Shown piece by piece: positions 14,786 through 62,854 of a stretch of DNA of 64,000 nt (its first letter is position 1; each line of letters opens with the position of its first letter). Both the position numbers and the translations under genes were made by a program. The stretch lies in assembly GCA_963832745.1 (NCBI GenBank), contig CAWHVC010000001.1, positions 160,001 to 224,000 of the forward strand, given 5' to 3'. The DNA is from Candidatus Bathyarchaeota archaeon. Lineage in GTDB: Archaea; Thermoproteota; Bathyarchaeia; Bathyarchaeales; Bathycorpusculaceae. The notes beneath the pieces were generated by a model, which had not been told where the DNA came from, did no database searches, and was given only the letters and a program-made list of their open reading frames with translations.

Positions 14786-14810
14786 GTGTTTGGGTGATGC
14801 TTCTGTATAC
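14786..14810 (+). repeat. Dispersed 25-bp intergenic motif, copy A
   Basis: GTGTTTGGGTGATGCTTCTGTATAC, one mismatch to the consensus GTGTTTGGGTGATGCTTTTGTATAC. Confidence 0.85.
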
Positions 14811-15095
14811 AAACTACTGGATTTCAACATACTTTTGAGCGGTTTTTCAACCAATAGCACCTACCCCCCTTAGTGATTTGAAGTTTTACCGCAGAAAAGC
14901 GTCAGGTAGAGCCTACCCCTCCAGTTTCCGCCTACTCCCTATAGGTTTTTGCATAGAATTGCTATTTAGATCCTAATATGTTGGTGTGAAAAGTAAAGCA
15001 ACTGTTTGTGGGCAAATTTGGTCAGATTTGATTTTTCATTAATTCAGATAAATTTTTAGACAGATTTTTATTGCATACAACTTTACATAACATTT

Positions 15096-49933: not shown

Positions 49934-50022
49934 AGTTGCCGCATGGAAAAAGTACTGATTAGTAATACATAAAGCCTTTATATTAAAAACACGGATTTGT
50001 GTTCAACAAAGAGGATCTTTGC

Positions 50023-50316
50023 ATGCGACGTTCAAAACTCGAAATGTATGTTGACATCCTGAAGGTACTGGCTCATCGGGGTCCATTAAAGCTGACTCAT
50101 GTAATGTACAAGGCCAACGTTAACTGCAGTGTACTCAAAGAATACTTGGATTTCCTGATCAAGCAAGGCTTGGTTGAAGAACGCACTATTGGTAAACGCC
50201 GTGTGGTGTATGCCGTCACACAACGTGGAATTACAGTGTTGAAGTATTTCAGAGAACTAAAGCAAGTGCTGCCAATCGTTGAAGAAGCGCGTAATTTAGC
50301 TCCAGTTCCCTTCTAA
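50023..50316 (+). CDS. Archaeal winged-helix transcriptional regulator (HTH_45-like)
   Basis: MRRSKLEMYVDILKVL...LTHVMYKANVN...YLDFL...YAVTQRG. Confidence 0.88.
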   Translation: MRRSKLEMYVDILKVLAHRGPLKLTHVMYKANVNCSVLKEYLDFLIKQGLVEERTIGKRRVVYAVTQRGITVLKYFRELKQVLPIVEEARNLAPVPF

Positions 50317-50517
50317 TCTCAATTTTTCTTCTACCCCCACAACTTTATTTCCATTTTTATTCATGTTCCGAATCGAATCAAAATGTCTTGATTGCCGCTG
50401 TTTTCGACCAGTTTTTGTAGTTCAACAATAGTTATTTATGTTTCGTAAGACTTAATAAACACTTATTTGTTACTGAACTGTATACTTGAAAAACAAATAC
50501 ACTCGGGGAGAACTTGG

Positions 50518-50898
50518 TTGAGCAAAGAAGAAGTGTTAGGAAAAAAACCTCTCGTAATTCTAGAGAAAATAAAAGAAAACCTCGAGAGACTTAACGAGAA
50601 AATCGAAGTAATGATTGAAATCCAGAAAAACGGCAACAGCAAAAAAGAAACTCCAATGATTCCCGACGCCTCACTCGACGTAATGACACTGCTTAATATG
50701 CCAGACCACCTCCGAAAAACAGCGATGACCATCTGCAGAAACGGTCGTGCAACAGCAGAAGAAATTTCTGAACAAACAAACCGAGCCCGAGCAGTAGAAA
50801 GCGCTTACCTAAATCAACTGGTAATCATGGGTTACCTTAAAAAAGAACGTAAAGGTAGAAAAGCATACTTCTTCGTTGATAGAGAATCACAGAGCTGA
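50518..50898 (+). CDS. Coiled-coil + winged-helix DNA-binding protein
   Basis: TTG start. N-terminal heptads (LEKIKENLERLNEKIE) and C-terminal ATAEEISEQTNRARAVESAYLNQLVIMGYLKKERKGRKAYF. Confidence 0.82.
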   Translation: MSKEEVLGKKPLVILEKIKENLERLNEKIEVMIEIQKNGNSKKETPMIPDASLDVMTLLNMPDHLRKTAMTICRNGRATAEEISEQTNRARAVESAYLNQLVIMGYLKKERKGRKAYFFVDRESQS

Positions 50899-50903
50899 AT
50901 GTC

Positions 50904-51680
50904 ATGAGCAAAATTATAGCCGTACACTCATACAAAGGCGGAACTGGAAAAACCCTTATGTCCGTAAACTTGGCCGCAACATTTGCCAAACAAGGAAAAA
51001 AAGTCGCCATATTCGACTTAGACTTCCGAGCGCCAAGCCTCTTTGCAATACTAAAATGCGAAAACGCTGAAACATGGTTCAACGATTATCTAAACAACAC
51101 TAGCGAAATAAACAAAATCTTAATTGACCTAAGCTCAAGAATAACTGGCGGCGGCAAATTTTACGCAGGCCTTGCAAATCCCTCAACCGAAGCAATCAGA
51201 GACATGTCCGCAAAAGACCGCAAATGGGAAATGCGTGCTCTAGGTCGACTCCTATCTCTACGAAATACGCTGCTTAATGAACAAAAGTTTGATTATTTGA
51301 TTTTTGATACCAGTCCAGGTTTGCAGTATTCTTCTATAAACGCAATTGTGACAGCCGACTTTGTTGTAGTTACTACAACTGGCGACCGTTCAGACGTAAA
51401 CGGAACTAAACGTATGCTAGCGGAACTTTACAACTTGTTCGAAAAGAAAACAGGTTTGGTAATTAACAAGGTGCTTGATGCTTCCAAAAGTAAAAACGCT
51501 GAGCTGACAAAAAAAGTAAAGGACATTTACCATGTTCCGTTGCTTGGAGCTGTACCGTGTTTTTGTGAAATACTGCGTGCTGAAGGCAACTATATTTTTC
51601 CCGAAGACAAGCCTGATCACCCATTCACGAAACTTCTGGCTGAAATGGCTGCCAAAATAGAGCAAAACGAAATAGGCTAA
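50904..51680 (+). CDS. MinD/ParA family ATPase
   Basis: Deviant Walker A SYKGGTGKT, DLDFRAP, FDTSPG, VINKV; 5 bp after the wHTH gene. Confidence 0.92.
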   Translation: MSKIIAVHSYKGGTGKTLMSVNLAATFAKQGKKVAIFDLDFRAPSLFAILKCENAETWFNDYLNNTSEINKILIDLSSRITGGGKFYAGLANPSTEAIRDMSAKDRKWEMRALGRLLSLRNTLLNEQKFDYLIFDTSPGLQYSSINAIVTADFVVVTTTGDRSDVNGTKRMLAELYNLFEKKTGLVINKVLDASKSKNAELTKKVKDIYHVPLLGAVPCFCEILRAEGNYIFPEDKPDHPFTKLLAEMAAKIEQNEIG

Positions 51681-51710
51681 GTTACTTTTTTTTAATTTCA
51701 AACTTTTTCC

Positions 51711-51748
51711 TTGTTGATGCTTGTTTTTTATATGCAAAAGCATCTAAC
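51711..51748. repeat. Degenerate two-armed (palindromic) version of the 25-bp motif, copy G
   Basis: TTGTTGATGCTTGTTTTTTATATGCAAAAGCATCTAAC has GATGCTT...AAGCATC arms head to head. Confidence 0.5.
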
Positions 51749-51771
51749 TAAATGCAGCAAAAACTTAAAGA

Positions 51772-52467
51772 ATGCACAATACGCTAAACTTGGCTGGAGA
51801 AAAACAATCAGTGATAGACAAATCAGCAATCATACTTGCAGGTGGAACCTCCCAAGGTTTTCCCGAAGACAAAGGCACAATGCTGCTTGACAACAAACCC
51901 TTGATTAGACGAGTTTTTAATATTGTTGAACCCATAGTTGATGAAGTAATAATCGTAACCAACACTCAAGAACGTGCCGACATTTACGCTAAACTTTTGC
52001 CGGAAACCGCCAAGTTGGTTCTAGACAATTCAGAAGCACAAGGACCCTTAATTGGTGCCATTGCAGGTTTTGAAGCTGCCCAAGGCAAATACGCCATGCT
52101 TCTGCCATACGATTCACCTTTCGTATCAGAAGACTTGGCTATGCTTCTTTTTGACTTGGCCATTGGCAAAACGGCAGTTGTTCCAAGAAACCCTGACAAT
52201 GAAATCGAACCGCTCTGCTCTGTATATCAAACAAAATTTGTTCTGGAAACAGCAAGACAAGTTGCAGACGAAGGTGCTGTGGATTTACAGACGCTGGTTG
52301 AGAAACTTCGTGGTGTAAGATATATTTCAACGATGGTTATCACTCAGATAGATCCGGAGTTACGTTCCTTCTTTAGCGTTAACACGCCCTTGGATCTTAA
52401 GAGGGCTGCAGTTATGCTTCAAGGAAAGCCTAACGCTTCGCGTACAAAAGGACATCACTCAAAGTAA
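51772..52467 (+). CDS. mobA: Molybdenum cofactor guanylyltransferase
   Basis: AIILAGG, DKG, GPLIG, PYDSPF, EPLCSVY, VNTPLDL. Confidence 0.88.
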   Translation: MHNTLNLAGEKQSVIDKSAIILAGGTSQGFPEDKGTMLLDNKPLIRRVFNIVEPIVDEVIIVTNTQERADIYAKLLPETAKLVLDNSEAQGPLIGAIAGFEAAQGKYAMLLPYDSPFVSEDLAMLLFDLAIGKTAVVPRNPDNEIEPLCSVYQTKFVLETARQVADEGAVDLQTLVEKLRGVRYISTMVITQIDPELRSFFSVNTPLDLKRAAVMLQGKPNASRTKGHHSK

Positions 52468-52532
52468 CTCTCTTTCTTTTATCGCTGTTTTTCTTGGCAA
52501 ATAACACAATTTTTACTTACTTAACGGTGCTC

Positions 52533-52557
52533 GTATACAAAAGCATCAACAAAACAA
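52533..52557 (-). repeat. Dispersed 25-bp motif, copy F (TTGTTG subtype)
   Basis: The + strand reads GTATACAAAAGCATCAACAAAACAA. Confidence 0.85.
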
Positions 52558-52611
52558 ACTCGACTCAAATCTTCGAAAGTATCAAATGACGATTTTTTAA
52601 CGAAAACAAGC

Positions 52612-52624
52612 GAACCTTATATAA
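52612..52624 (+). promoter_or_regulatory. Candidate archaeal BRE/TATA promoter with no downstream ORF
   Basis: GAACCTTATATAA, followed by a hairpin at 52669-52725 and a T-tract at ~52740. Confidence 0.4.
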
Positions 52625-53177
52625 TCATGGGCTGTGAAGACCTATTTCCCCAAGTTTTGTTGACCGCTTGCCTCAGTGGAGCAAAATTTTGATCACTTTT
52701 AGTGTGTCCGATGTGAATTGAGGCACTAAAAACCAGTCATTTTTTCTTCCGCCAATCCAATTTCTGCGTGTTTGGCGCCTGTAGCCACTCATAACATTGT
52801 TATATTTGTAGTTTTATTTGACCTTTCTAAGCCAACTTTATTATTTTGTGCTTTTTTTGATAACTTTGCCGTTTCAGTTTAACGAAAAAATTTCGAACGG
52901 TCATTTTTTACATTAAACAGTTAAAACAAAGCATTCAAACAATCGATAACTGACATCAACAGTTTCAATTTGCCCATGATTTAGGTGAAATTTGGCGTTA
53001 TGCTTTGCGAAGCCTGCTGGTGGCGACTGGTGAGACGTTTTTGGCGGAAGCTGGCGAAAGGATTATTTCCGTCAAGGAAAATACCGTGGGTGTTCGTGAG
53101 TGCTGGATAACGAGGGTCGGTTTCATGGCTTCCTGCAAAAAGATGAAGGTTTGGGTAAAGTTCAGTTGTGGAAAACT

Positions 53178-53202
53178 TTGTTTGGGTGATGCTTTTGTAT
53201 AC
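53178..53202 (+). repeat. Dispersed 25-bp motif, copy B
   Basis: TTGTTTGGGTGATGCTTTTGTATAC. Confidence 0.88.
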
Positions 53203-53278
53203 CGATGGGTTGCAAAGCATAATTTAACTGGTGATTCAGCACAAGTTTTGGCGTTTTTTGCAGCATTTGTGTTAAAGT

Positions 53279-53992
53279 TTGGGGTTGCACGTGTTGAGTG
53301 TTGAGCGTAATCTGATAATTTCAGTCCTAAAACTGACCCAAAAATCTCCAGTTTTAATCAAAGGTGTCAAAGAAGATGCTAAGCTGCCAATAGAGTTAAC
53401 GTATTCATTGCTGGAAAAAATGCAATCAGAAGATCTACTTAATTTAACCAGTGAAGCGGTGGAGGTCTCTGTTGATAACAGGCTTAAATTGGCAGTTAAA
53501 GCTGTCTCGTTAGGTGCAGATGTTGAGCATGTTAGCGACTTGCTTTGCTGGCAAGAGTTTGAAGAAATCGCAGCCATGGCTTTACGCAACAACGGGTTTG
53601 TTGTAGCTAAGAACGTTCGGTTCAAGCATGGGGGACGTAAATGGGAGGTGGACGCTGTAGGCTGCAAACCTCCATTGGTGATTTGTATTGATTGCAAACA
53701 TTGGAGTCGCGCCATATCGCCTTCTGTTTTAGGCAAGATTGCGCAGGCCCAAGCAGACCGTGCAAAGGCTCTGTCAGAAGTGTTACCAAATGTGAAGATT
53801 CAATTGGAATGTACCAAATGGGAAAACGCCCAGTTCATCCCAGCGATTTTGTCACTTGTTCAAGGCAGATTCAAGTTTTATGATGACATCCCGATTGTTC
53901 CGGTGCTTCAACTCCAAGATTTTCTGTGCCAGTTGCCTGCTTACATATACCAGTTGAAGTCCTTTCATAAGGTATTTGACCATTTAGGTTAA
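53279..53992 (+). CDS. PD-(D/E)xK nuclease (Mrr/NERD-like) with N-terminal helical domain
   Basis: WQEFEEIAAMAL...GF...NVRF...EVDAVG...ICIDCKHW. Confidence 0.8.
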   Translation: MGLHVLSVERNLIISVLKLTQKSPVLIKGVKEDAKLPIELTYSLLEKMQSEDLLNLTSEAVEVSVDNRLKLAVKAVSLGADVEHVSDLLCWQEFEEIAAMALRNNGFVVAKNVRFKHGGRKWEVDAVGCKPPLVICIDCKHWSRAISPSVLGKIAQAQADRAKALSEVLPNVKIQLECTKWENAQFIPAILSLVQGRFKFYDDIPIVPVLQLQDFLCQLPAYIYQLKSFHKVFDHLG

Positions 53993-55858
53993 GATTTTAA
54001 GTATCGACTTTTTAGACATTTTTACTGCTGGGTAGAGGCTTAACAGAAACATAGTTGCCAAAGCAGAAAGTAGCCATGCTGCAATTCCCATAATGGTCCA
54101 AGTTGTTACTAACGGGTTTGCCATCAAAATCATTAATGTTGTCATGATTCCAAAGGCGATTCCAACGCCAAAACTTGAAAGAAGCACAATCAAACCTTGA
54201 ATAGACAATATATTGATAACTATCTGCGGTTTTGTTCCAATCGCCCGTAAAACGCCAAATTCCTGATGCTGCTCCTCCACCGATAAAACTTGGTAACCAA
54301 CAAGGCACATGGCGGCTGAAGACAAAGTGACCATGGGAACAAGCATAATCACTGCCCACGAGGCACCTAAATAATTAAGGTTACGTTGCGTAATGGTGCC
54401 AAGCAGAAAAACCTGCAAATCAGGATCTACTGAGCCAATTCTCTGCTGCAACTGCTCAACAAAAGCGGTCATATCTACGCCGTCTTTAGGCGTAATCAGT
54501 ACAAGATTTGGTGCAAGGCCAGTTAAGTTTTCAAGGGTTTCTAGTGGTACATAGATGATTATGCCTGTGTTAATTGGGTCAACACACACGCCACGTATGT
54601 CAAATGTTTTATCGTATATTTGTGCGGTTTGAACCAGAGGGTCAGAATAGTTTATACCGTTTTTTGGATCAGGCGAGTACATTTTTGAGGCTAAGGAATC
54701 GCCGATTACCGCTTCAAAACCCGTTTTGTTGCTTAAAAATTGTCCATTAATAGATAAAGGTACATGCGTATTGTCGGGATTTAAACCGATAATGACAGAG
54801 TCTCCTTCACGATAACCGCCAACATACTCTGTTTGCCCATTTTGTTTAAAAGTAAAGTTTCTTCCCTCCAAAATGTGTGTCCGTAAAACAAGTCTTTCAT
54901 CAACCCCGGCAACATCGCTTAACGTCTTCAAACTGTTGATTGCCACTTGTGAAACGGCATAATCGGGGTTAGAATAACTAAAATTATCGTCTGCTTGGTT
55001 ACCAGAAAACGTTGATAAAACCTGCAAATACTGGTTACCCAAGCTACCGTGCGCTACTATAACTGTGTTGATGCTGTTTGTACTTACAGGGTCCTGTACC
55101 CAAGAACTGGTGGTGTCACGGGCAATTATGCCTCCCGTAATCGAAATAGTCAACAAAACAAAAACAGCTGAAAGCAAAATCACCATGCGAACAACCGCGT
55201 TTTGACGTCTACTAAGGCTTCGAGTGGCAATTTTCCAAGTTATTCCAAACTTAGAAAGAGGTTTATGCATTTTTTCAGCAGGAATCCCATAATAATTAAC
55301 GGTTGAAAGTGCCAATATAGGTGGCATTCTTGCTGTGTCCATTATGGGTTTTAACCCAAAAGCAAGCGCCAAGATAAGAAAAACTGTGAAAACAAAAACT
55401 GCAACTAGAAAATTTGGTAGAACATACGAGCCTAAAACAAAATATGCAACCAAAAAATCTGCTGCCACACCAAAAAGTGTCCCCAAAAGGCATCCACTTA
55501 CAGAGACAATCAATAATTCAGTTGTGAAATATCCTGCGACAAGCGAGCCTGGACATCCTGCAGCTTTAAGCAGACCCAAATCGCGAGTCCTTTGAGCCAT
55601 CATTAAAAAAACAATAAAAGACGTCAGGATAGCGCCAACAATAAACGTCAAGGGTTCAAGAAAAACTAGAAATTGGGCAAAAACAGCAGATAATCCGGTT
55701 GTTAACGTGCTTGTTTGAACTGAAATGCTTGTGCCGATTCTGCCGCTGAAAAGCAACAAAAACAAGGTTGATGCAACACTTAAGGTCAAGGTTGTAATAG
55801 TTAAACCGGTTTGAAGTGGTCTTCGCAGTAAGTCCTTAACGGGAAAACTCTTATTCAT
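53984..55858 (-). CDS. ABC transporter permease, FtsX/MacB-like with two FtsX domains
   Basis: QRTRDLGLLKAAG and EFGVLRAIG motifs, multiple TM helices, large extracellular loop. Confidence 0.88.
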   Translation of the reverse strand: MNKSFPVKDLLRRPLQTGLTITTLTLSVASTLFLLLFSGRIGTSISVQTSTLTTGLSAVFAQFLVFLEPLTFIVGAILTSFIVFLMMAQRTRDLGLLKAAGCPGSLVAGYFTTELLIVSVSGCLLGTLFGVAADFLVAYFVLGSYVLPNFLVAVFVFTVFLILALAFGLKPIMDTARMPPILALSTVNYYGIPAEKMHKPLSKFGITWKIATRSLSRRQNAVVRMVILLSAVFVLLTISITGGIIARDTTSSWVQDPVSTNSINTVIVAHGSLGNQYLQVLSTFSGNQADDNFSYSNPDYAVSQVAINSLKTLSDVAGVDERLVLRTHILEGRNFTFKQNGQTEYVGGYREGDSVIIGLNPDNTHVPLSINGQFLSNKTGFEAVIGDSLASKMYSPDPKNGINYSDPLVQTAQIYDKTFDIRGVCVDPINTGIIIYVPLETLENLTGLAPNLVLITPKDGVDMTAFVEQLQQRIGSVDPDLQVFLLGTITQRNLNYLGASWAVIMLVPMVTLSSAAMCLVGYQVLSVEEQHQEFGVLRAIGTKPQIVINILSIQGLIVLLSSFGVGIAFGIMTTLMILMANPLVTTWTIMGIAAWLLSALATMFLLSLYPAVKMSKKSILKILT

Positions 55859-56556
55859 TCCTTAATCAATCTTCCATCTTCAATGCTCAATACAATATCA
55901 GCTAAACCACGAATTTCCGGGTCATGAGTAGATACAATAACCGTTTTGCCTTCACTTTTGAGGAGTTGAAAGATTTGAATGATTTTTTGAGCGTTCTTTC
56001 TGTCCAAGTTTCCTGTAGGTTCGTCTGCAAGAATTATTGGCGGGTTATTGGCTAAGGCACGTGCAAAAGCGACTCTTTGCTGCTCACCGCCGCTTAATTG
56101 TGAAGGAAAATGGTTTGCCCTATGTTTCAAGCCAACAGTTTCAAGAAGATGTTGAGTGCGGTCTTCTATTTCTTGAGAAGGTTTTCTTAGCCACTCCATA
56201 GGAAAAGCGATGTTTTCTGCCACCGTTAACGTTGAAACCAGGTTGAAAGATTGGAAAACAAAGCCTGTTTGGTTGCACCTAAACTCGGCGAGGTCTTCTT
56301 CGTTTAGCTGTGTGAGGTCCTGGTTTGCCACTTTTATTTCGCCGCTTGTTTCCCGGTCGATACCTCCGATGATGTTGAGCAGGGTAGTTTTGCCTGAACC
56401 TGAAGCTCCACATAAAGCAACAAATTTGCCTGTGGACAGTTCAAGATTAACGTGTTTTAGGGCTTCAACTTTTTCAGTGCCGACAAGATATGTTTTTGTT
56501 AACGCGCGAGCCGCAACAATAATTTCCTCTAACTGTTCTTCTTCCGCCATTTCCAT
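55855..56556 (-). CDS. ABC transporter ATP-binding protein (LolD/MacB-like)
   Basis: [32 protein letters not shown]. Confidence 0.95.
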
Positions 56557-56619
56557 CCCTGACTTTTTCTGTTAAGGGCTTGTGGTTGGAAGTTAATAAT
56601 AAGGTTGAGGTACGTTCCC

Positions 56620-57087
56620 TTACGCAGACTTCTCTTCAGGGATTTCTTGGATTTCCTGATAGCTTTTGTCTATGTTAAGATTGCCTCTGTCTCGCTTTAA
56701 AATCCGTACTTTTTCAGGAATCTTGTCCTTCTGCCAATCAGACCAGCTGATTTCTTTAAACAGCCAGCGTTTCCCTAAGTGAGCAGCAACAACTGCGTGC
56801 TTATACTTGTTTTCTGTTGGGATGAATTGGTCTAGAAATCGGAATAGTTTGTCGATTTGGGGTTTTGGAAAATAGGCGTAGTAGCTGGCGTTTTTTACTT
56901 CAAACGCGTAGGTGTGTTTGCCTTTACGCGCCATTAGATCAGGTAGGGGGTTCAAGCTAGGGTTGCTTACTGGGACCCTAACGGCGAAGTAGCCTTTCTT
57001 TAGCAACAGTTTGACCAGTACGGATTCGCTGTAGAAGCCGCGTTTGCGCCAACGTCGAAGTTTAATTCGGTCAATGTCTTTGCTCAC
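56620..57087 (-). CDS. hjc: Archaeal Holliday junction resolvase (Hjc/Hje family)
   Basis: RGFYSESVLVKLL.KKGYFAVRVPVS....PDLMA.K....AFEVK. Probable GTG start at 57087 (ORF track 57111). Confidence 0.75.
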   Translation of the reverse strand: MSKDIDRIKLRRWRKRGFYSESVLVKLLLKKGYFAVRVPVSNPSLNPLPDLMARKGKHTYAFEVKNASYYAYFPKPQIDKLFRFLDQFIPTENKYKHAVVAAHLGKRWLFKEISWSDWQKDKIPEKVRILKRDRGNLNIDKSYQEIQEIPEEKSA

Positions 57088-57163
57088 ATATTCCACTTCT
57101 GGTCTTTGCAACCTTTTTGGGTTGGGTGAATAAAATGTTTGTTAACACGGCTGCGGCAACTGT

Positions 57164-57188
57164 GTGTTTGGGTGATGCTTTTGTATAC
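57164..57188 (+). repeat. Dispersed 25-bp motif, copy C (consensus)
   Basis: GTGTTTGGGTGATGCTTTTGTATAC. Confidence 0.9.
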
Positions 57189-58540
57189 GCTCTCTTGGAG
57201 CACAAAACTATGGTGTGTACTGGTGACGAATGATGGTGATGTAAAATACTGCACCAACCAATGCAGCACAACTGTGATAACTTTTATGTTCAACTATTCA
57301 AAATAATGGTCGATTTGCCTACACCAGCAACCAACAAACCTGCCGCTGACCAGAAATAAACACAAAACATCGCCACCCCAACACAAATCAAACAAGAATT
57401 TACCAGCAACAAACCATTCAAAAACAACCAACAAAACAAGTCACAAACCAACAACCTAAGCTGCCAATCAAAACAGCACACAATAAAGGGCAAACACAAA
57501 CCGGTCAGCAATTTGAACCAACAAAAACTCTTGCACATGCAATAGCACCACTCTCAACAAGGCCACAAATCCAGAAGCGAACGTACACTCAACCGAAAAC
57601 TACTCACCCAAGGTTGTTACTGGAATAGACATTTTTCGTCAGGGCTTTGTGCAAAAAACAGCAAAGTTTGCCAAACGCAGCCAACAGCCCCAAAAAGTGT
57701 CGCAAGAGTTCGAAGGGTTCTCGAAAAAGTCAGCTATTGCTTCGAATGGAGATTTTCGGGGGTACTTATATGAGGCTCCGATATTCTCCATGCCAACCAC
57801 TTTGGGTAAACACGAATACGCCAAAATCAGGGTCTTTTTGCAATTATGAGGCATTTTTGAGGCTATTAATTTTGTCTTCCGTGACAAATTTTGACCAAAA
57901 TTTTTATAAAATCGTATTCGCGATAAAGCAGCCAATAATAATTGCTTGTTTTATCAAATAACCTTAAAAAATAGGTGTTTTACATAAATGCCCCTTTCGT
58001 TTAATCGTTAGTTTTTTGAGTTGTATCTGCGTTGCTGAGTTTGTGTTGTTTGGTTGTTAACTCTTTTTTTTGATAATTTTTCTTCTTTGAATAGTTGGTT
58101 AGCTAAAAATTACCTGCTATTGATTAATTTTTAGTGAAACTGAAAATGCCCTTTTTACACAAGATTAATTCCTAAAACAGTTGTAATGCGGATGTTACTT
58201 TTTATTGATAAGCGGTTTTGTCAATTCAAAAACGGGCTTGCCGAATTTTTGCTTTGGACTGGTGAGGTCTCATTTAACTTGGGGAGCAATAATTGTTGTC
58301 AATAATAATGTAAAAAATTGTTGTCCTAAGTGGTAAACAGTTTGAGTAGCATATTGGTTTAATTTTAAGTTATGCGAGCAGTTTTCATTTATGTGTAGTT
58401 CATTATTGAATCAATAAGTGGTTAAAAATTTTGAAACTTTCTTTGGTCAATAATATGTGAATTGCTTATTTACTCTATTTTGAAAATTATGCATTACCTC
58501 TGACTGAAAACTTTAAAGAACAATCAGGCGCAACTGTAAA

Positions 58541-58565
58541 GTGTTTTGTTGATGCTTTTGTATAC
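58541..58565 (+). repeat. Dispersed 25-bp motif, copy D (TTGTTG subtype)
   Basis: GTGTTTTGTTGATGCTTTTGTATAC. Confidence 0.88.
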
Positions 58566-59108
58566 AGCCACCTGTTCGGCAAGGGGCTTGTTTTTAAAAA
58601 TAACGCCACCTTTGGCGCTGCTTGCACGGTAAGCTTAGTTAAACACCGGCAAACAAACTGGCCAGATAGCGCTCTTATGTGTGCCTATGAGCAGCTTTTT
58701 AGTTTTCCAGGTCAAAAGGTGTTTGTCCTCTTGAGGGTCGATTTTCAGGGGGGTGTCAAAAAATTTTAGCGTGTTTGGACCTGTTTTTTCATTGTTTTCT
58801 TTTGTTGTTCTCAAGTAAGCACCAGTTTTGTCTTCAACAAACAGGCGTAAATGAGCCTTTTTTGGAGGTGCTTAACATAAAGAAAAACGCAGTCAGTGAA
58901 ATCAGTGACTCACGTAATACCAAATTTTTCTCCGTCACCAAAATGTCTTAACCGAAAAATTAAGGCATTTTTCCGAAATAGAACTGGCCAAATTTGCTCA
59001 ACACACTTCAATAAATCGCCAAAACCACCCTTTTAATCGAGCTTCTTGCAGCTTGGAGTAAACACTGTTGATTTAAAATTACCCACTATCCTTGAAAAAT
59101 AATCCAAT

Positions 59109-59306
59109 TCATAGTGCCATCCCCACTATTGGTTGAAAGATAGGTAGATCGTGCAATTTGCGGCGGTGATCATCATGCTCTTCCAACGTATCAAAAACTT
59201 TTCCACACAATCTGCATCGGTACTTGCCTTCCAGAGTAATTTCTGCCGAGGATTCAGATTCGATCGGGTAATCCCAAAGTTTGTTTTCTTTTTCCTGATC
59301 AGACAC
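59109..59306 (-). CDS. Small C2H2 zinc-finger protein
   Basis: YRCRLCGKVFDTLEEHDDHRRKLH fits Y-x-C-x2-C-x3-F-x8-H-x4-H; GGGGGTGA SD upstream. Confidence 0.72.
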   Translation of the reverse strand: MSDQEKENKLWDYPIESESSAEITLEGKYRCRLCGKVFDTLEEHDDHRRKLHDLPIFQPIVGMAL

Positions 59307-59509
59307 TTTCTCACCCCCGAGAAGACAGAAAGGTCTCTGCCAAATCTAGAAAAAACTGCCTTGCTTAAGCCTGTGTGACTAGCACATTACAACAACAGCC
59401 ATTATTTTATTTTTTTAAATATTCAAAGATTTTTTGAAGGTGTAAACGGCTGAAAAGAATCAAAAATCGCCACAAACAAAAAAGCGGGCAAAATTTAAAC
59501 TTGTGATTT

Positions 59510-59534
59510 GTATACAAAAGCATCACCCAAACAC
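59510..59534 (-). repeat. Dispersed 25-bp motif, copy E (consensus, inverted)
   Basis: The + strand reads GTATACAAAAGCATCACCCAAACAC. Confidence 0.9.
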
Positions 59535-59596
59535 AGTACTGGATTTTATTAGAAAAATTTTTCAGCACAACTCGCTTTAAGATTCTTGTGAAGCGT

Positions 59597-60013
59597 ATGT
59601 CTGATTTTAAAATCGTGAACAAACAAATCACCTTCAACACAGAGGGGCCCATAAGTTTTATCGATTTAAGCAACCAAATAAACAAGGCAACTGCAGAATC
59701 AAAAATCCGCAACGGCTTGGTCCACGTATTTGCACCTCACGCAACAGGCATCCTCATCCTAACAGAAAACGACCCTGCCCTGCTTGAAGACATAAAAGCA
59801 CTTCTGGAATATTTGGCGCCAAAAAACGCTGACTACTCGCACCCCTCAAATGCTCATGCTCACTTGCGGTCGGTGCTTATGCCGCCTGACAGGACCTTGC
59901 CGGTGATTGATGGCAAAGTGGCTTTTGGGACTTGGCAATCCTTGATGTTTGTGGAAACCGACGTCTACCCACGTCGACGCACCGTAACTATCCAAATTCT
60001 TGGCGAGCAATGA
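59597..60013 (+). CDS. yjbQ: YjbQ/UPF0047 family protein (secondary thiamine-phosphate synthase)
   Basis: PHATG...ENDP, YSHPSNAHAHLRS, FGTWQ...ETD..PRRR. Confidence 0.9.
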   Translation: MSDFKIVNKQITFNTEGPISFIDLSNQINKATAESKIRNGLVHVFAPHATGILILTENDPALLEDIKALLEYLAPKNADYSHPSNAHAHLRSVLMPPDRTLPVIDGKVAFGTWQSLMFVETDVYPRRRTVTIQILGEQ

Positions 60014-60422
60014 CTCAAAATTTTTGGCCATTTTTCACCCATATTTTTGTTTCTTCGGGAATTTTGAAAAAATTCGAAGTTAACGTCATGAAATTTTATT
60101 CAATAGCCTCAAAATAAGCAACTTGAACTTCGTTAATTTAACTGTTTATTGTAAAAAATGTCCATTCGAACATTTTTCGCACACAAGAAAAAAGGTAAAG
60201 ATGTCGCCTGTAGCATAATTGCTCGAAAACAGCACTCGACGCAAAGTTTTGGACCTAAAAAAGAGGCAAAAAGCAACAATCCTTGAAAGTTTAACGCCTG
60301 TTAAAAGCGTTTTTGAAGCTTTATTCAGCAAGTAAATAATTTGAAGCTAAATTTTTCTTTCAGAATAGCTTTTTTCAGGCATGATTATATAAGGTTCGCA
60401 GCACTTCGAAAAAATTGGGTGT

Positions 60423-61157
60423 TTACCCGCCAGTTGCTACCTGTCTTCTTGCGTCTCTGGGTCGTAACCGCGCCTTTTTCTTATCTGCTGCACGAGCTTC
60501 TGGTCTCTCCTCAAGCTCATCAACAACAGGTTCATCTAATGGTAAAGTTTCTTCAGGTTCAGGGAAATTTACAACCGTCGCTTGTTCCACACCCGCTTTA
60601 ACCATTGAATCCACTGCCCTATCTGTGTCGCCTGCGTGAACGTTAATACCTCGGATTGCATCCATCAGCACGACGGTTTCAAAACCAAGTTTTCTTGCAT
60701 CAAGAACACTATTAACAATACAGTAATCGGTTGCGAGACCGCCAATAAAAAAACGTTTTACGCCGAGCTTGTACAGTTCATTTGCAAGTTCGGTTCCATC
60801 AAAAGCAGAATAAGCTTCATGGTCGGGCCGAGTTGCCTTGGATATGATATGTGTGTTTTTGGGAAGCTTGAGGTCGGGGTGAAACTTTGCTCCTTCAGTT
60901 TCTTGAACACAGTGGGGTGGCCAGGGTCCGCCTTGAGTTTTAAAGGATACGTGGTTTGCTGGATGCCAATCTCTTGAAGCAAAAATATTGGCGCCTGATT
61001 CTTGAAATTTACGTGCGTACACGTTAAGCACGGGAATTACTTGTGCTCCTTGAGGAACTGGCAACGCGCCGCCTGGAAGAAAATCGTTTTGAACGTCAGT
61101 TACAAGTAGCGCATCTGATTTGTTTAGTGTGTAAGTTTTTGACAAAACAGCATTCAC
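60423..61157 (-). CDS. pncA: Nicotinamidase/pyrazinamidase
   Basis: DVQNDFLPGGAL, SRDWHP..H.SF, WPPHCVQ, EAYSAF, GLATDYC. Confidence 0.92.
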   Translation of the reverse strand: MNAVLSKTYTLNKSDALLVTDVQNDFLPGGALPVPQGAQVIPVLNVYARKFQESGANIFASRDWHPANHVSFKTQGGPWPPHCVQETEGAKFHPDLKLPKNTHIISKATRPDHEAYSAFDGTELANELYKLGVKRFFIGGLATDYCIVNSVLDARKLGFETVVLMDAIRGINVHAGDTDRAVDSMVKAGVEQATVVNFPEPEETLPLDEPVVDELEERPEARAADKKKARLRPRDARRQVATGG

Positions 61158-61312
61158 CCTAAAATCTTTGCTAAAAATAATATAACTGCTGCTTCGGAAT
61201 AAACTTTGCCGCTAAAGCGCGATAAGTTGGTTACTAAACCGTTTTTGGGTAATGTTTTTAGTTATCAGAAAGTCGATGGATAACCTTATCTTGTAAAATT
61301 CAACACATATAG

Positions 61313-62854
61313 ATGGCGTCTAACATGCAAGCAAAAAGCCTTAAAGCTTCAATTTCCAGCCGAGAAATGAGGGCCACTGAAACAAACTCGGAGTACTACG
61401 GAATAAGCCTGCTTCAACTTATGGAAAACGCTGGAAGAAACATTGCCGAAGAAATCCAGAAACGTTTTTCAAATGACCTGAAGGTGGCACTCTTTTGCGG
61501 ACTTGGCGGAAATGGTGGAGATGGTTTTGTTGCTGCACGACACCTTTTGGCGCAAGGCTACCAAGTCACGATTGTTTTGGCGGGAAAAAGCCGAGAAATA
61601 AATCATCCATCGGCGCTTCAAAATTGGAATGCCCTTAAACCAGTCATTGATCGCATCTGTGTACTGGAGATTTCTGACAGCTCCATGATTCCTACGGTTG
61701 AATCGGATGTAGTTGTTGATGCCTTGTTAGGCACGGGAACTAAAGGGAAACTGAAAGCGCCAATACTACAGATGGTTGATTGCATCAATTCTTCTAAAGC
61801 GTTTAAAATCGCGGTTGATGTTCCAACTGGGATAGATTCTGATAACGGCGACGTTTTAGGTACCGCTGTAAAAGCTGATTTAACAGTCACTTTCTACAAG
61901 TCCAAGGCTGGCTTGGATAAAGCCAAAAAGTATGTCGGCGTTTTAGTAGTTCGAGATATTGGGTTGCCTATGGCGTTTGAACGGTTTGCGGGTCCAGGCG
62001 ACGTGAATTTAGCTGGAAAACAACGGTTTTCAACAGCGCATAAAGGCGATTTTGGGCGTTTGCTGGTTGTTGGTGGAAGCAAGGTTTTCTCGGGTGCACC
62101 CACGCTTGTTTCCATGGCTGCTTTGCGGACAGGCATTGATATTGCTTACACGGCTTCTCCGGAGAAAACGGCTTATGAAATCTCTTCAATGTCACCAGAT
62201 TTAATTGCGATTAAGCTTTCAGGAAGTAACCTTAGCCCTGACAATTTGGTTGAGTTGGCGCCTTATTTGGCGTCTGTTGATGCGGTTGCGATGGGTCCCG
62301 GGTTGGGTTTGAACGGTGAAACCACTGAATTCGTCAAAATGTTTGTTGATGAGGTTGAGAAGGCTGGTAAACCGCTGCTTTTGGATGCTGACGGCTTGAA
62401 GGCGTTTGCCAAATGTAAGCGTCCGTTAAAGGTCCCATTGGTGCTTACGCCTCACGCAGGCGAATACTCGATTCTTACAGCCGAAAAGCTTCCAGAAGAT
62501 CTTGAAGGCAAAATAGAAATAATTCAAAAAACCGCCAAAGAGTTAAACGCGGTCTTGCTTGTTAAAGGTAAAGTCGACATTATCTGCAGCCCACGCAAGG
62601 TCAAACTGAATTTTACGGGCAATGCTGGCATGACTGTCGGCGGAACAGGCGACGTGCTTTCAGGGATAGTGGGTGGATTGTTGGCGCAGAAGACGGACAT
62701 GTTTGAGGCTGCGGTTGCTGGCGCCTTTGTAAATGGCGCTTGTGGCGATTTTGTCGCTTCTGAAATCGGTTTTCACATGGTTGCTTCGGATATTTTAGAT
62801 TGGATTCCCCGAGTGTTTGTTGATCCTATGAGTCATTTGAAGGTGCGCGTGTAA
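61313..62854 (+). CDS. nnr: Bifunctional NAD(P)H-hydrate epimerase/dehydratase (YjeF_N + YjeF_C)
   Basis: LMENAG, GGNGGDG, DALLGTG, VDVPTG; then HKGDFG, MGPGLG, DADGL, TPHAGE, GGTGDVL. Confidence 0.94.
   Translation: MASNMQAKSLKASISSREMRATETNSEYYGISLLQLMENAGRNIAEEIQKRFSNDLKVALFCGLGGNGGDGFVAARHLLAQGYQVTIVLAGKSREINHPSALQNWNALKPVIDRICVLEISDSSMIPTVESDVVVDALLGTGTKGKLKAPILQMVDCINSSKAFKIAVDVPTGIDSDNGDVLGTAVKADLTVTFYKSKAGLDKAKKYVGVLVVRDIGLPMAFERFAGPGDVNLAGKQRFSTAHKGDFGRLLVVGGSKVFSGAPTLVSMAALRTGIDIAYTASPEKTAYEISSMSPDLIAIKLSGSNLSPDNLVELAPYLASVDAVAMGPGLGLNGETTEFVKMFVDEVEKAGKPLLLDADGLKAFAKCKRPLKVPLVLTPHAGEYSILTAEKLPEDLEGKIEIIQKTAKELNAVLLVKGKVDIICSPRKVKLNFTGNAGMTVGGTGDVLSGIVGGLLAQKTDMFEAAVAGAFVNGACGDFVASEIGFHMVASDILDWIPRVFVDPMSHLKVRV

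Follow-up and report, generated by a model that had tools for sequence, protein, structure and literature searches.

The locus reported here can be compared with the bacterial shufflon. Fully conserved bases of the Rci sfx sites are confined to the core and one of the arms, an asymmetry thought to limit Rci to inversions (PMC11852207). The 25-bp motif that we analysed in a 64,000-nt window (the whole stretch of DNA under study) of an uncultured archaeon resembles the sfx sites in having a conserved core and one conserved arm while the other arm is not conserved. It differs from shufflons in that its sites are intergenic and no coding sequence is varied. We see about an even chance that the motif is an asymmetric, shufflon-sfx-like crossover site for site-specific recombination, and it more likely marks DNA-inversion sites than a chromosome-partition site.

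A search of the window with the pattern GTGTTTNNNTGATGCTTTTGTATAC, allowing up to three mismatches, returned six matches, whereas 100 dinucleotide-preserving shuffles averaged 0.00. The copies are found at 14786..14810 (+), 52533..52557 (-), 53178..53202 (+), 57164..57188 (+), 58541..58565 (+) and 59510..59534 (-), starting exactly where the preliminary description had placed them, and its division into two subtypes also held, with GGG at 14786, 53178, 57164 and 59510 and TGT at 52533 and 58541. When the copies were aligned with 100-nt flanks on each side, they shared no similarity beyond the 25 nt of the motif. The abrupt stop in conservation after GTATAC that had been noticed in the window was reproduced in 176 distinct sites from this genome and its relatives of family f1, where the information content falls from almost 2 bits to ~0 at the first position past GTATAC, unlike the arm side, where it fades gradually. 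The copies are intergenic, as had been claimed, since none of the six lies in a Pfam-supported ORF and 0 of 178 copies from 40 f1 loci lie inside a mapped gene.

The cluster lies downstream of a gene for an HTH_45/Sso10a-like winged-helix protein (49999..50316, +; 81-94% identity across f1), a gene for a coiled-coil and TrmB-like winged-helix (wHTH) protein (50518..50898, +, in a frame open from 50467), which had been suggested as the binder of the motif, and a MinD/ParA-family ATPase gene (50904..51680, +) with the deviant Walker A motif KGGTGKT, which starts 6 nt past the wHTH stop. Between the ATPase stop and the start of a MobA-like NTP transferase gene (51772..52467, +), we recovered the degenerate head-to-head site of the preliminary description at 51711..51748 (no strand assigned), whose two decayed arms read TTGTTGATGCTT-GTTTTTTATAT-GCAAAAGCATCTAAC, 31 nt past the ATPase stop codon; the same junction contains one full (-) copy in G002, G059, G091, G295 and G150. 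The copy at 52533 lies 66 nt past the MobA-like stop and is the left partner of a divergent pair ~620 bp apart. The copy at 53178 is located 77 nt upstream of a gene for a winged-helix and Mrr/NERD-type PD-(D/E)xK nuclease-like protein (53279..53992, +), with its GTATAC end adjoining the gene and a BRE/TATA-like AAAGCATAATTTAA ~10 nt further on, and this Mrr-like gene adjoins the motif cluster in families f1, f2, f4, f5 and f6. The genes for an FtsX/MacB-type permease (53984-55858) and an ABC ATPase (55855-56556), which together span 53984..56556 (-), are followed by the gene for the Hjc Holliday-junction resolvase (56620..57111, -), the sole gene in the genome to pass the Pfam cut-off for the Hjc family. 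The copy at 57164 precedes the Hjc start by 53 nt; its arm end adjoins the gene, and a TATA-like ATTTTATT is found ~27 nt past the arm. The copy at 58541 is placed in a 2.5-kb stretch, 57112-59587, in which we found no convincing gene, and the copy at 59510, opposite in orientation to those at 57164 and 58541, points its arm end to a UPF0047/YjbQ-family gene (59588..60013, +) from 54 nt upstream of the start. The region 60423..62854 contains an isochorismatase-family gene (60423-61157, -) and a YjeF/Nnr NAD(P)HX repair gene (61313-62854, +), the promoter box of which is preceded by a motif copy in five of seven aligned relatives but not in this genome. The outlying copy at 14786, which has one mismatch, lies between a divergent MTAP-like gene and a secreted-protein gene, followed by the abundant intergenic repeat modules.

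The claimed clustering was also evident at the genome level. The 3.02-Mb genome contains 13 copies within one mismatch of the 16-nt core (exact in eight), five of which are within 7 kb, while the reversed pattern, used as a control at up to two mismatches, gave one match. In a sample of 91 genomes of the order, searched with GATGCTTTTGTATMC at up to one mismatch, the motif was found in 82 with either GTATAC or GTATCC, the latter being the form of the 6-bp core in sister families. The exact 15-mer is present in 46 of 48 f1 genomes, and all 17 genomes of family f2 contain the motif, 16 of them with at least two matches. The copies gather around a recurring gene set (Mrr-like, ABC/FtsX, Hjc, Lon, GNAT, YjbQ and Nnr), and other compact clusters with both orientations hold seven copies in 14 kb (G002) and five in 12 kb (G022). 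Their constant core is an inverted (+)/(-) pair, 239-274 bp apart in all of the first 12 loci examined. Twenty such pairs were aligned. The sequence that separates the paired copies is conserved throughout f1 and extends in conserved form to f5, and this f1 spacer is homologous to the upstream region of a recombinase gene of genus g72 (f5), with TTGGTGATnnTGGTGA..GTATTA and GTAGGC boxes in common.

Small tyrosine-recombinase ORFs were found between, or within ~400 nt of, inverted copies in three families, f2, f4 and f5. The 197-aa recombinase of G102 (f2) matches Pfam Phage_integrase with 31.1 bits (cut-off 27.1), and genus g72 has a recombinase orthologue at at least 83% identity in 8 of 11 genomes, the gene being flanked on both sides by copies in four of six loci examined; further motif-linked recombinases are present in G371 and G257 (f5) and in G368 and G166 (f4). 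All aligned recombinases contain the R...HxxR...W...Y residues, and they fall into divergent groups, with 23% identity between G102 and G146. No homologue of these recombinases was detected in this genome or in 40 f1 loci by tblastn (nothing below E 0.27), by a profile search or by hmmsearch of all six-frame ORFs (best E 0.004), and an orthologue was found in 0 of 17 f1 genomes. The recombinase-free genus g71 (f5) also keeps the inverted pair. As the motif is nearly invariant in f1 without a recombinase, something besides a linked recombinase maintains it.

In the model that we favor, each site would consist of one conserved protein-binding arm, GTGTTTNGNTGATGCTTTT, and the 6-bp core GTATAC (GTATCC in sister families), with an unconserved second arm and a crossover presumably within GTATAC. 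The copies would divide a ~10-25-kb stretch of housekeeping genes into blocks, and recombination between oppositely oriented copies would invert these blocks. The ancestral unit would be the inverted pair, which in several relatives encloses or adjoins a recombinase gene, and the presumed enzyme is a small, catalytic-domain-only tyrosine recombinase; the linked recombinases may be the ones acting on the motif. Inversion may be ongoing in this genome as well; without such a recombinase, its sites would need an enzyme in trans or serve a second role.

The gene order between genomes is consistent with this model in that gene blocks with oppositely oriented copies at their ends are inverted. The order Hjc< [>] Lon< E< [>][<] GNAT> in G008 and the order Hjc< [>][<] E> Lon> [<] GNAT or UPF0047> in L012, G021, G002, G022 and G059 are related by one inversion between the first and the last copy, and the spacer orientation agrees. 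In G280 and G268, which belong to one genus, the flanks are collinear and the central block is inverted, with a (-) and a (+) copy at the block ends, and the same flank swap appears in 3 of 11 readable g1 genomes and 4 of 5 g30 genomes. The adjacencies that are free of copies never vary, namely ABC-Hjc (28 loci), FtsX-Mrr and ABC-FtsX (24 each), MinD-wHTH and GNAT-UPF0047 (12 each) and HTH45-wHTH (10). Upstream of Hjc, six different partner genes were found, and all 22 non-operon junctions there carry a copy. The spacer orientation relative to the lon side is identical in 19 of 20 pairs, the exception (L011) being internally rearranged, and no within-population inversion was seen among the short low-coverage contigs placed on the region. 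Motif-bearing junctions are also operon boundaries, where rearrangement breakpoints are tolerated anyway. The 200 kb around the cluster is heavily scrambled between G280 and G268 (nine chained blocks, six mapping elsewhere). With such junctions and such a background, the inversions are not confidently assignable to the motif.

The main rival to a recombination site is the binding site of a regulatory protein, which we regard as possible but doubtful. The motif would then be an upstream activating site or operator for a sequence-specific DNA-binding protein that co-regulates the clustered maintenance genes (Hjc, Lon, GNAT-YjbQ, Nnr/YjeF, MobA-like and Mrr-like), while the nearby recombinase genes and the inversions would be by-products of a repeated sequence at operon boundaries. 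The near invariance of the motif in lineages without a linked recombinase is in line with such a role, as are the intergenic placement of all 178 copies and the presence, 5-45 nt downstream of most copies, of a BRE/TATA-like box in agreement with the tRNA-gene promoter consensus of this genome, read from the upstream regions of the 40 tRNA genes found. A distance of 21-27 nt separates the arm end from a TATA-like box in 10 of 10 motif-bearing Hjc promoters, and the ancestral pair lies between two divergent operons with an arm end toward each. Other copies in the genome are upstream of what we take, from N-terminal sequences, to be glutamate-dehydrogenase-like, endonuclease-III-like and peroxiredoxin-like genes. 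However, the site occurs in either orientation and its spacing varies, with 5-43 nt to the conserved YjeF promoter box in the five motif-bearing cases, and promoters in other genomes lack it (Hjc in 11 of 21 rows, Mrr-like in 6 of 12, YjeF in 2 of 7), while the copy C1:301284 lies between convergent genes, where a promoter is unexpected. Operators are not usually asymmetric 18-25-bp sites with a single razor-sharp edge and an identical sequence in most copies, and the divergent tyrosine-recombinase genes found repeatedly between or beside the inverted pair are left unexplained. No candidate regulator co-occurs with the motif either: the wHTH protein is missing from f2, and the Mrr-like protein is absent in two genomes that retain the pair, G012 and G050, and present in the motif-free f3.

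The wHTH protein (50518-50898) is central to the partition system of the preliminary description, in which it would bind the copies as a centromere-like array and the MinD/ParA ATPase (50904-51680) would position or segregate the locus, in the manner of SegAB or of the pNOB8 ParA systems. A cluster of near-identical sites within a few kb does resemble a parS array, and the two genes, 6 nt apart here, are adjacent in families f1 and f4, with an ATPase that matches MinD/ParA models in addition to its deviant Walker A motif. Most f1 genomes have the pair on the same contig, ~3-12 kb from motif copies, and a copy directly follows the ATPase stop in G002, G059, G091, G295, G150 and G280, the degenerate site taking its place here. 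The co-occurrence that such a system implies is nevertheless not seen, as the order sample has the motif in 82 of 91 genomes versus a wHTH orthologue in 57 of 91, family f2 in 17 versus 0 of 17 and family f35 in 5 versus 1 of 5. G034 (96% complete), G035 (93%) and G042 (89%) of f1 keep the motif and Hjc, and neither wHTH nor MinD was found in them, with other genes occupying the usual wHTH/MinD place after the MBL gene in G035. Moreover, a distance of 50-70 kb separates the wHTH-MinD pair from the motif cluster in G008 and G022, the pair is on another contig in G016, G046 and G050, the constant core adjoins Hjc/Lon/GNAT-YjbQ and not the ATPase, and the two Orc1/Cdc6 genes sit on other contigs. 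We consider a partition role very improbable; of the two parts of the original proposal, centromere-like or recombination site, the former falls on co-occurrence, and the latter, together with its mobile-element variant, fits better with the linked recombinases and inverted blocks. It is just as hard to credit the motif as a special promoter, with TGATGC serving as BRE and TTTTGTATA as TATA box, that drives short non-coding RNAs, for example by transcription entering the 240-bp spacer between the paired copies from both sides. TGATGC-TTTTGTATA is loosely similar to the tRNA-gene BRE/TATA consensus gAAAGC-TTTAAATA, and the spacer, besides being conserved across f1 and into f5, has on one strand a small compensated hairpin (AGCC..GGCT / ACCG..CGGT / GCTG..CAGC) with a T-run after it. 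On the other hand, TATA boxes do not typically have a central G, and the two copies of the pair would fire toward each other. At copies outside the pair, the sequence 20-35 nt downstream of GTATAC is not conserved, and the only conserved structure that RNAalifold found in the spacer is the mutual pairing of the two repeats; an Rfam search gave no family match even at E up to 1.

Two other conserved elements were observed in the region. A 44-nt non-coding element, CGAAAAAATTTCGAAC..TTTTTACATTAAACAGTTAAAA, is located at 52883..52927 (+) and, inverted, at 60137..60179 (-), and these are its only two copies in the genome. A non-coding or micro-ORF element, ATGGAGATTTTCG..GGT..TATATGAGG..TCCAT, is located at 57701..57795 (+); in relatives it has the motif pair on one side and the lon gene on the other.

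The 25-bp intergenic motif consists of a conserved arm and a 6-bp GTATAC core, which reads GTATCC in sister families. All six positions claimed for it in the preliminary description were borne out, each with 0-1 mismatches, whereas 100 shuffles gave a mean of 0.00 matches. Both subtypes, GGGTG and TTGTTG, were likewise found at the window copies, as was the degenerate head-to-head version just past the stop codon of the ATPase gene (51711-51748). The abrupt end of conservation after GTATAC, which had been noted from the window copies, is seen in 176 distinct sites of f1, the family of the window's genome, as a sharp loss in the following position, and is therefore a general property of the element. 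Over these 176 sites, the information content is at least ~1.8 bits across GATGCTTTTGTATAC and ~0 one position later, with a gradual fall on the arm side. An alignment of the copies with 100 nt on each side showed nothing common outside the motif. The intergenic placement also stands: none of the 178 copies in 40 f1 loci lies within a mapped gene, and the window copies are in no ORF supported by Pfam. The mapped-gene test was used here in place of stop-free frames of at least 120 codons, since the latter flagged 35 of the 176 sites by counting upstream extensions of real genes.

In the 3.02-Mb genome (five contigs, with the window at 160001-224000 of C1), we found 13 copies at up to one mismatch to the 16-nt core, of which five lie within 7 kb in the orientation order (-,+,+,+,-), another is 38 kb upstream and the remaining seven are elsewhere. 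Relatives such as G002, G022, G016, G046, G059 and others carry 4-8 copies per 8-25 kb. The 16-mer, again at up to one mismatch, is present in 51 of 61 sampled f1 genomes from 60 genera, and two of the ten apparent misses (G004 and G055) have a decayed pair. The exact 15-mer is almost limited to f1 (46/48 in a 301-genome sample of the class). When either GTATAC or GTATCC is allowed, the motif is present in 82 of 91 genomes of the order, with family counts of 17/17 in f1, 17/17 in f2, 16/18 in f4, 17/17 in f5, 3/3 in f6, 5/5 in f35 and 0/3 in f3. This distribution suggests that the motif is much older and more widespread than the window alone would indicate. Contig ends were not enriched at the motif and so gave no hint of heterogeneity there, as ~9 of the ~450 listed matches lie within 250 nt of a contig start, near the prediction from the contig number.

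The constant core of the locus is an inverted pair of motif copies in which the GTATAC ends point inwards and the starts are 239-274 bp apart. This pair is present in 12/12 of the first-fetched loci, 11 of which have an Hjc and/or UPF0047 orthologue within 4 kb, and 20 such pairs were aligned. The spacer DNA between the two copies contains conserved blocks, namely CTGGTGA, GTAATAC, two TCACC boxes, TTAGCCTAC and a small compensated hairpin; RNAalifold on the 20 pair spacers gave no conserved fold except the trivial pairing of the two repeats. The gene neighbourhood is common to all ~60 mapped loci and is made up of blocks: HTH_45, wHTH and MinD; MobA-like; Mrr-like; FtsX and ABC; Hjc; a short element with LonB; GNAT with UPF0047/YjbQ; isochorismatase; and YjeF/Nnr. 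Additional motif copies are placed at the junctions separating these gene blocks. The window's genome has lost lon and GNAT at the locus and contains instead a 2.5-kb stretch (57112-59587) without a convincing gene. Rfam searches of the whole window (gathering scores) and of 51600-60300 (E up to 1) came back empty, and no tRNA genes were found in the window.

Two side observations concern this neighbourhood. The HTH_45 protein (49999-50316) scores 59.8 bits against the NCBIfam model of the Sso10a chromatin protein, whose cut-off is 60, and its identity across f1 genera (81-94%) is well above that of the neighbouring proteins. Within the stretch without a convincing gene, the plus strand of 57290-57538 is A/C-rich over 250 bp, and its minus strand contains an 82-codon ORF rich in Cys, Leu and Phe with no family match; this segment occupies the place of the pair's second motif copy in relatives.

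In some relatives from families f2, f4 and f5 of the same order, a tyrosine recombinase gene is found at the sites. In G102 (f2), the copies of an inverted pair are separated by 900 bp, and the 197-aa ORF between them matches Pfam Phage_integrase at 31.1 bits (cut-off 27.1). In G146 (f5), the distance within the pair is 1.47 kb, and the enclosed 238-aa ORF belongs to the same superfamily at 19.3 bits, which is below the cut-off. Genus g72, to which G146 belongs, has orthologues of the G146 recombinase with at least 83% identity in 8 of 11 genomes; inverted copies bracket the gene in 4 of 6 loci examined, and the other two loci have one clear side. More small recombinase ORFs were reached by a search seeded with the G102 protein. 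A recombinase ORF lies between inverted copies in G368 (f4), beside one motif copy in G166 (f4) and G257 (f5), and ~190 nt outside the pair in G371 (f5); in G271, it adjoins the Mrr-like gene, and no motif copy was found there at up to two mismatches. The catalytic R, HxxR, W and Y residues are retained in the aligned recombinases; the proteins are short (186-249 aa) and highly divergent, with 23% identity over 95 residues between G102 and G146. The best solved-structure match of the recombinase profile is XerA, at an E-value of only 0.17, and the family also has paralogues distant from the motif.

No homologue of the linked recombinase was found in the window's genome, in the 40 f1 loci or in any of 17 f1 genomes, and the 12 PF00589 matches of the window's genome lie elsewhere, several of them beside tRNA genes. 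The upstream region of the g72 gene and the f1 spacer have TGGTGA/GTATTA and GTAGGC boxes in common, and because of these boxes the f1 spacer looks like the same element minus the gene. Genus g71 (f5) keeps a 268-bp pair without recombinase or Hjc. Most lineages have lost the recombinase gene and kept the repeats, and the motif is almost invariant even in recombinase-free lineages. We also noticed that the slot between the pair and ABC/FtsX holds a small recombinase gene in f5 and hjc in f1 (loci L131 and L040 vs the window). Hjc, which is the sole Hjc-family gene of the window's genome, gave no match in any of the f5 genomes checked (5/5 in one set, 2/2 in another), and, considered as a replacement enzyme, it was rejected as a required partner because f5 keeps the pair without Hjc (0/5). 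The recombinase at C1:236329-237213, 12 kb past the window, was rejected as a trans-acting candidate: its f1 relatives are patchy (at E 1e-10 or lower in 30 of 41 genomes) and mostly 25-35% identical, and none of them is near the clusters.

The gene blocks between motif copies differ in orientation among relatives. When the loci are drawn with Hjc leftwards, three forms are seen. Arrangement A, in 13 loci, is Hjc< Lon< E< [>][<] GNAT> UPF0047>, in which the bracketed arrowheads are motif copies and E is the conserved short element near lon. The G008 form is Hjc< [>] Lon< E< [>][<] GNAT>, and arrangement B, found in G002, G021, G022, G059 and L012, is Hjc< [>][<] E> Lon> [<] GNAT/UPF0047>. Inverting the G008 form between its first and last copy yields B exactly, including the flipped orientation of the spacer. 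In genus g30, the flanks of G280 and G268 are collinear on both the MinD side and the isochorismatase-YjeF side and the central block is inverted; in each genome, one end of the block has a (-) copy and the opposite end a (+) copy. The same flank swap was observed in 3 of 11 readable genomes of genus g1 (G245, G228 and G182) and in 4 of 5 g30 genomes; if the genera are monophyletic, at least two inversion events are needed. The order of YjeF and UPF0047 also differs between G002 and G046 on one side and G022 and G059 on the other, again at motif copies. Six adjacencies are free of motif copies wherever they occur, and they are invariant over 110 instances. The position upstream of Hjc is filled by six different partner genes, and a copy is present in 22/22 non-operon junctions of that kind.

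These inversions fall short of proof. The motif junctions coincide with operon boundaries, where breakpoints are tolerated, and an inversion that merely includes inverted repeats at its ends is indistinguishable from one made at them. Over 200 kb, the synteny between G280 and G268 is broadly scrambled, with six of nine chained blocks mapping elsewhere. The orientation of the spacer is identical in 19 of 20 assemblies. For 51600-60100, no RNA data set was listed, and two DNA runs contained 5-7% of the words; these gave only short, low-coverage contig pieces, too little to bear on active inversion, and no joint at a motif copy.

The reading that we favor, with confidence about evenly balanced against doubt, is that the motif is a recombination site resembling sfx, that it belongs to an old inversion system of the chromosome and that f1 has lost the recombinase gene. 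We propose only tentatively the wider picture, in which this Bathyarchaeia order has a vertically inherited, chromosomal, shufflon-like multi-inversion system whose sites in f1 outlive the linked recombinase gene. In such a system, the asymmetric sfx-like sites would be served by small tyrosine recombinases of the size of FimB, and the flipped units would be blocks of maintenance genes (Hjc, LonB, Nnr, YjbQ) or a 240-bp spacer between divergent operons. The f1 sites would have been kept, and even multiplied (13 copies here), through a trans-acting enzyme or through a second, regulatory use.

The main rival, which we find possible and yet somewhat doubtful, takes the motif as a regulatory protein-binding site. 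Many copies are 5-45 nt upstream of a box that resembles the BRE/TATA consensus preceding the tRNA genes of this genome, of which 40 were found; that consensus is near gAAAGC-TTTAAATA. A TATA-like box stands 21-27 nt from the arm end in 10/10 motif-carrying Hjc promoters, as read from the printed sequences. Against a regulatory site, the copies lie either way round, they are anywhere from 5 to 43 nt away from the conserved YjeF box, one copy sits between convergent genes, and the motif is absent from many orthologous promoters (11/21 rows for Hjc, 6/12 for Mrr and 2/7 for YjeF). Moreover, no regulator with a matching distribution was found when the distributions of the wHTH and Mrr-like proteins were compared. 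The Mrr-like wHTH-nuclease is present in 78 of 91 genomes; two genomes with the pair, G012 and G050, are without it, and 2 of the 3 f3 genomes, where the motif is absent, have it, so that its candidacy as cognate binder, as judged from gene distribution, is not supported. That the motif is itself a special promoter seems very unlikely to us. A core promoter (BRE/TATA) is hard to reconcile with copies that lie both ways round and 46-140 nt from start codons, with no fixed orientation or distance, and separate TATA-like boxes stand between the motif and the genes. Three further candidates were rejected. For a replication origin, the Cdc6_C matches are on other contigs of this genome (C3:485856 and C2:280536) and there is a weak skew minimum only; for ends of MITEs or insertion sequences, the copy flanks are unrelated and the copies number only 13, most of them at a single syntenic locus; and for an origin from mobile elements, an exact scan of viral contigs gave 48 single matches, about the chance estimate from the collection size. 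The skew minimum itself is a local minimum of the cumulative GC skew at the motif cluster (C1 ~220 kb, window ~58-60 kb), of small amplitude and with no orc1/cdc6 nearby.

The preliminary description had proposed that the wHTH protein may bind the motif and that the ATPase may position the locus. The wHTH and MinD genes are a genuine conserved pair, 6 nt apart and usually 3-12 kb from motif copies. The TrmB-like wHTH match spans 50467-50898, and the ATPase (50904-51680) matches AAA_31, ParA, CbiA and MipZ in Pfam and is far under the NCBIfam cut-offs (71.8 vs 201.75 for MinD and 60.1 vs 180 for ParA). The check for co-occurrence came out against the proposal: in one 91-genome sample, the motif is present in 82 genomes and a wHTH orthologue in 57. 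The partnership fails in f2, where the motif is present in 17/17 genomes (16 with at least two matches) and the wHTH in 0/17, and where the copies are also paired, beside Hjc-like and Mrr-like genes. Within f1, G034, G035 and G042 keep the motif and Hjc, and neither wHTH nor MinD was found in them; in G035, the slot after the MBL gene that is usual for wHTH/MinD is occupied by other genes. The motif sites centre on genes other than wHTH-MinD. SegAB of Sulfolobus and AspA-ParB-ParA of pNOB8 are archaeal partition systems, and the window resembles them in that the gene of a small DNA-binding protein is followed by that of a ParA/MinD-type ATPase and repeated sites lie close by, but differs from them in the 17 f2 genomes that have sites without the wHTH and in the centring of the sites on other genes. 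It is hence most improbable, in our judgment, that the motif copies are centromere-like sites served by wHTH-MinD, and the pair should not be annotated as the motif's partner, whichever reading of the motif holds. Apart from the motif, a conserved 23-nt word, GTTTCGTAAGACTTAATAAACAC, was observed ~50 nt upstream of the wHTH gene (window ~50440-50465) in 4/4 aligned genomes, and it may be a promoter or autoregulatory site of wHTH-MinD.

With respect to the recombination-site reading, programmed DNA inversion is well studied in bacteria and bacterial plasmids. Among single invertible switches, the H segment of Salmonella is served by Hin, a serine recombinase, acting on hix, and fimS of E. coli, which has 9-bp repeats and carries a known promoter, is served by FimB/FimE, whose size is close to that of the recombinases here. 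Archaeal viruses reportedly use such inversion as well, as in the Int1 region of the haloarchaeal virus phiCh1. The likeness to these switches lies in the inverted ~25-bp repeats that bracket a 0.9-1.5-kb segment with a recombinase gene in G102, g72 and G368; in the G371 variant, a ~250-bp spacer is bracketed and the recombinase gene is next to it. The motif system differs in that any promoter inside its spacer is putative, whereas that of fimS is known, in that the spacer has one orientation in 19 of 20 assemblies, and in that most lineages with the motif have lost the recombinase gene.

In working principle, the closest match is the R64 shufflon of bacterial IncI plasmids, with its recombinase Rci and its sfx sites. 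According to one account, only the core and a single arm of the sfx sites contain conserved bases, which is thought to limit Rci to inversions (PMC11852207). The motif likewise is an asymmetric site with a conserved core and one conserved arm, several short sites in both orientations cut a compact region into invertible segments, and the loci of f2, f4 and f5 have a tyrosine recombinase gene beside the sites, as in R64. Unlike the plasmid-borne R64 type, the motif system is chromosomal, archaeal and conserved across an order, and the window's genome is without a cognate recombinase; its sites are intergenic and bound whole genes or operons, whereas shufflon sites bound alternative 3' ends of one gene. 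We do not claim shufflon membership, because there is no linked recombinase here, no coding end is switched and the alternative orientations are seen between genomes only. In the portion of a review that covers archaeal tyrosine recombinases, no direct relationship to Rci is reported (PMC8371274). The same review, in part, describes archaeal integration, excision and inversion by recombinases of mobile elements (viruses and plasmids), including large integrase-linked inversions (PMC8371274). Chromosomal inversions in Thermococcales are attributed in its text to the pTN3 integrase or to homologous recombination between integrated elements (PMC8371274), and the likeness, as far as that text goes, is that archaeal tyrosine recombinases or short repeats invert DNA and reshuffle an otherwise conserved gene order. 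The Thermococcales events as outlined there involve identical segments of at least 104 bp or whole integrated elements, with low sequence specificity (PMC8371274), in contrast to a specific 25-bp word that is order-wide and has a fixed neighbourhood. Our search of the literature on archaeal shufflons and on inversion and recombinases in Bathyarchaeia found no description of a chromosomal multi-site, shufflon-like inversion system in archaea.

If the recombination-site reading is true, these archaea would have a conserved recombination site whose core varies naturally (GTATAC or GTATCC), several compact enzymes of ~190-250 aa would be open to in vitro work, and f1 would provide a case of sites persisting after the loss of the linked enzyme. 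If the motif is regulatory instead, it would be a cis-element of unusual sharpness, found across the order, for genes of repair and proteostasis in a lineage that is uncultured.

In addition to the motif, we observed other conserved elements. A very abundant intergenic repeat gives more than 100 BLAST matches per query genome-wide, with examples at 14812-15000 of the window and at C3:667121 and C3:434549 of the same genome. Its first module consists of GTTTTTCAACAT, a hairpin (TTAATGGC..GCCATTAG) and then CACCTACCCCCCTTAG, and its second module is ACCTACCCNTATAGGTTTCTGCATAGAACCTCTAATAGG. The repeat often lies directly past stop codons in either orientation and looks like a MITE- or REP-like family. 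Module 1 trails 7 of the 8 motif copies outside the cluster, including the one at 14786, 8-29 nt on. A 44-nt element, CGAAAAAATTTCGAACGGTCATTTTTTACATTAAACAGTTAAAA, has exactly two copies in the genome, which are inverted and both inside the motif cluster (52883-52927 on the plus strand and 60137-60179 on the minus strand), and the clusters of other f1 genomes have two or three copies of it. A ~55-nt element, ATGGAGATTTTCGnnGGTnnTTATATGAGGnnnCGnTAnnnTCCATG, at window 57701-57795 and at about 4500-4560 of the relative locus L001, is conserved at the nucleotide level across f1 and has a 6-7-bp closing stem or a 12-codon micro-ORF; in relatives, it is located between the motif pair and lon, with no Rfam match. 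The promoter region of lon is itself strongly conserved in relatives (for example, L001 4700-4790) and has an inverted repeat, TTTCATATTGCCGATTTTGAAATAACCTCTATAATAATTC, ~60 nt upstream of lon, which, from its sequence, looks like an operator ahead of a TATA box; the window's genome has no lon at the locus that carries TTTCATATTGCCGATTTTGAAATAACCTCTATAATAATTC in relatives.
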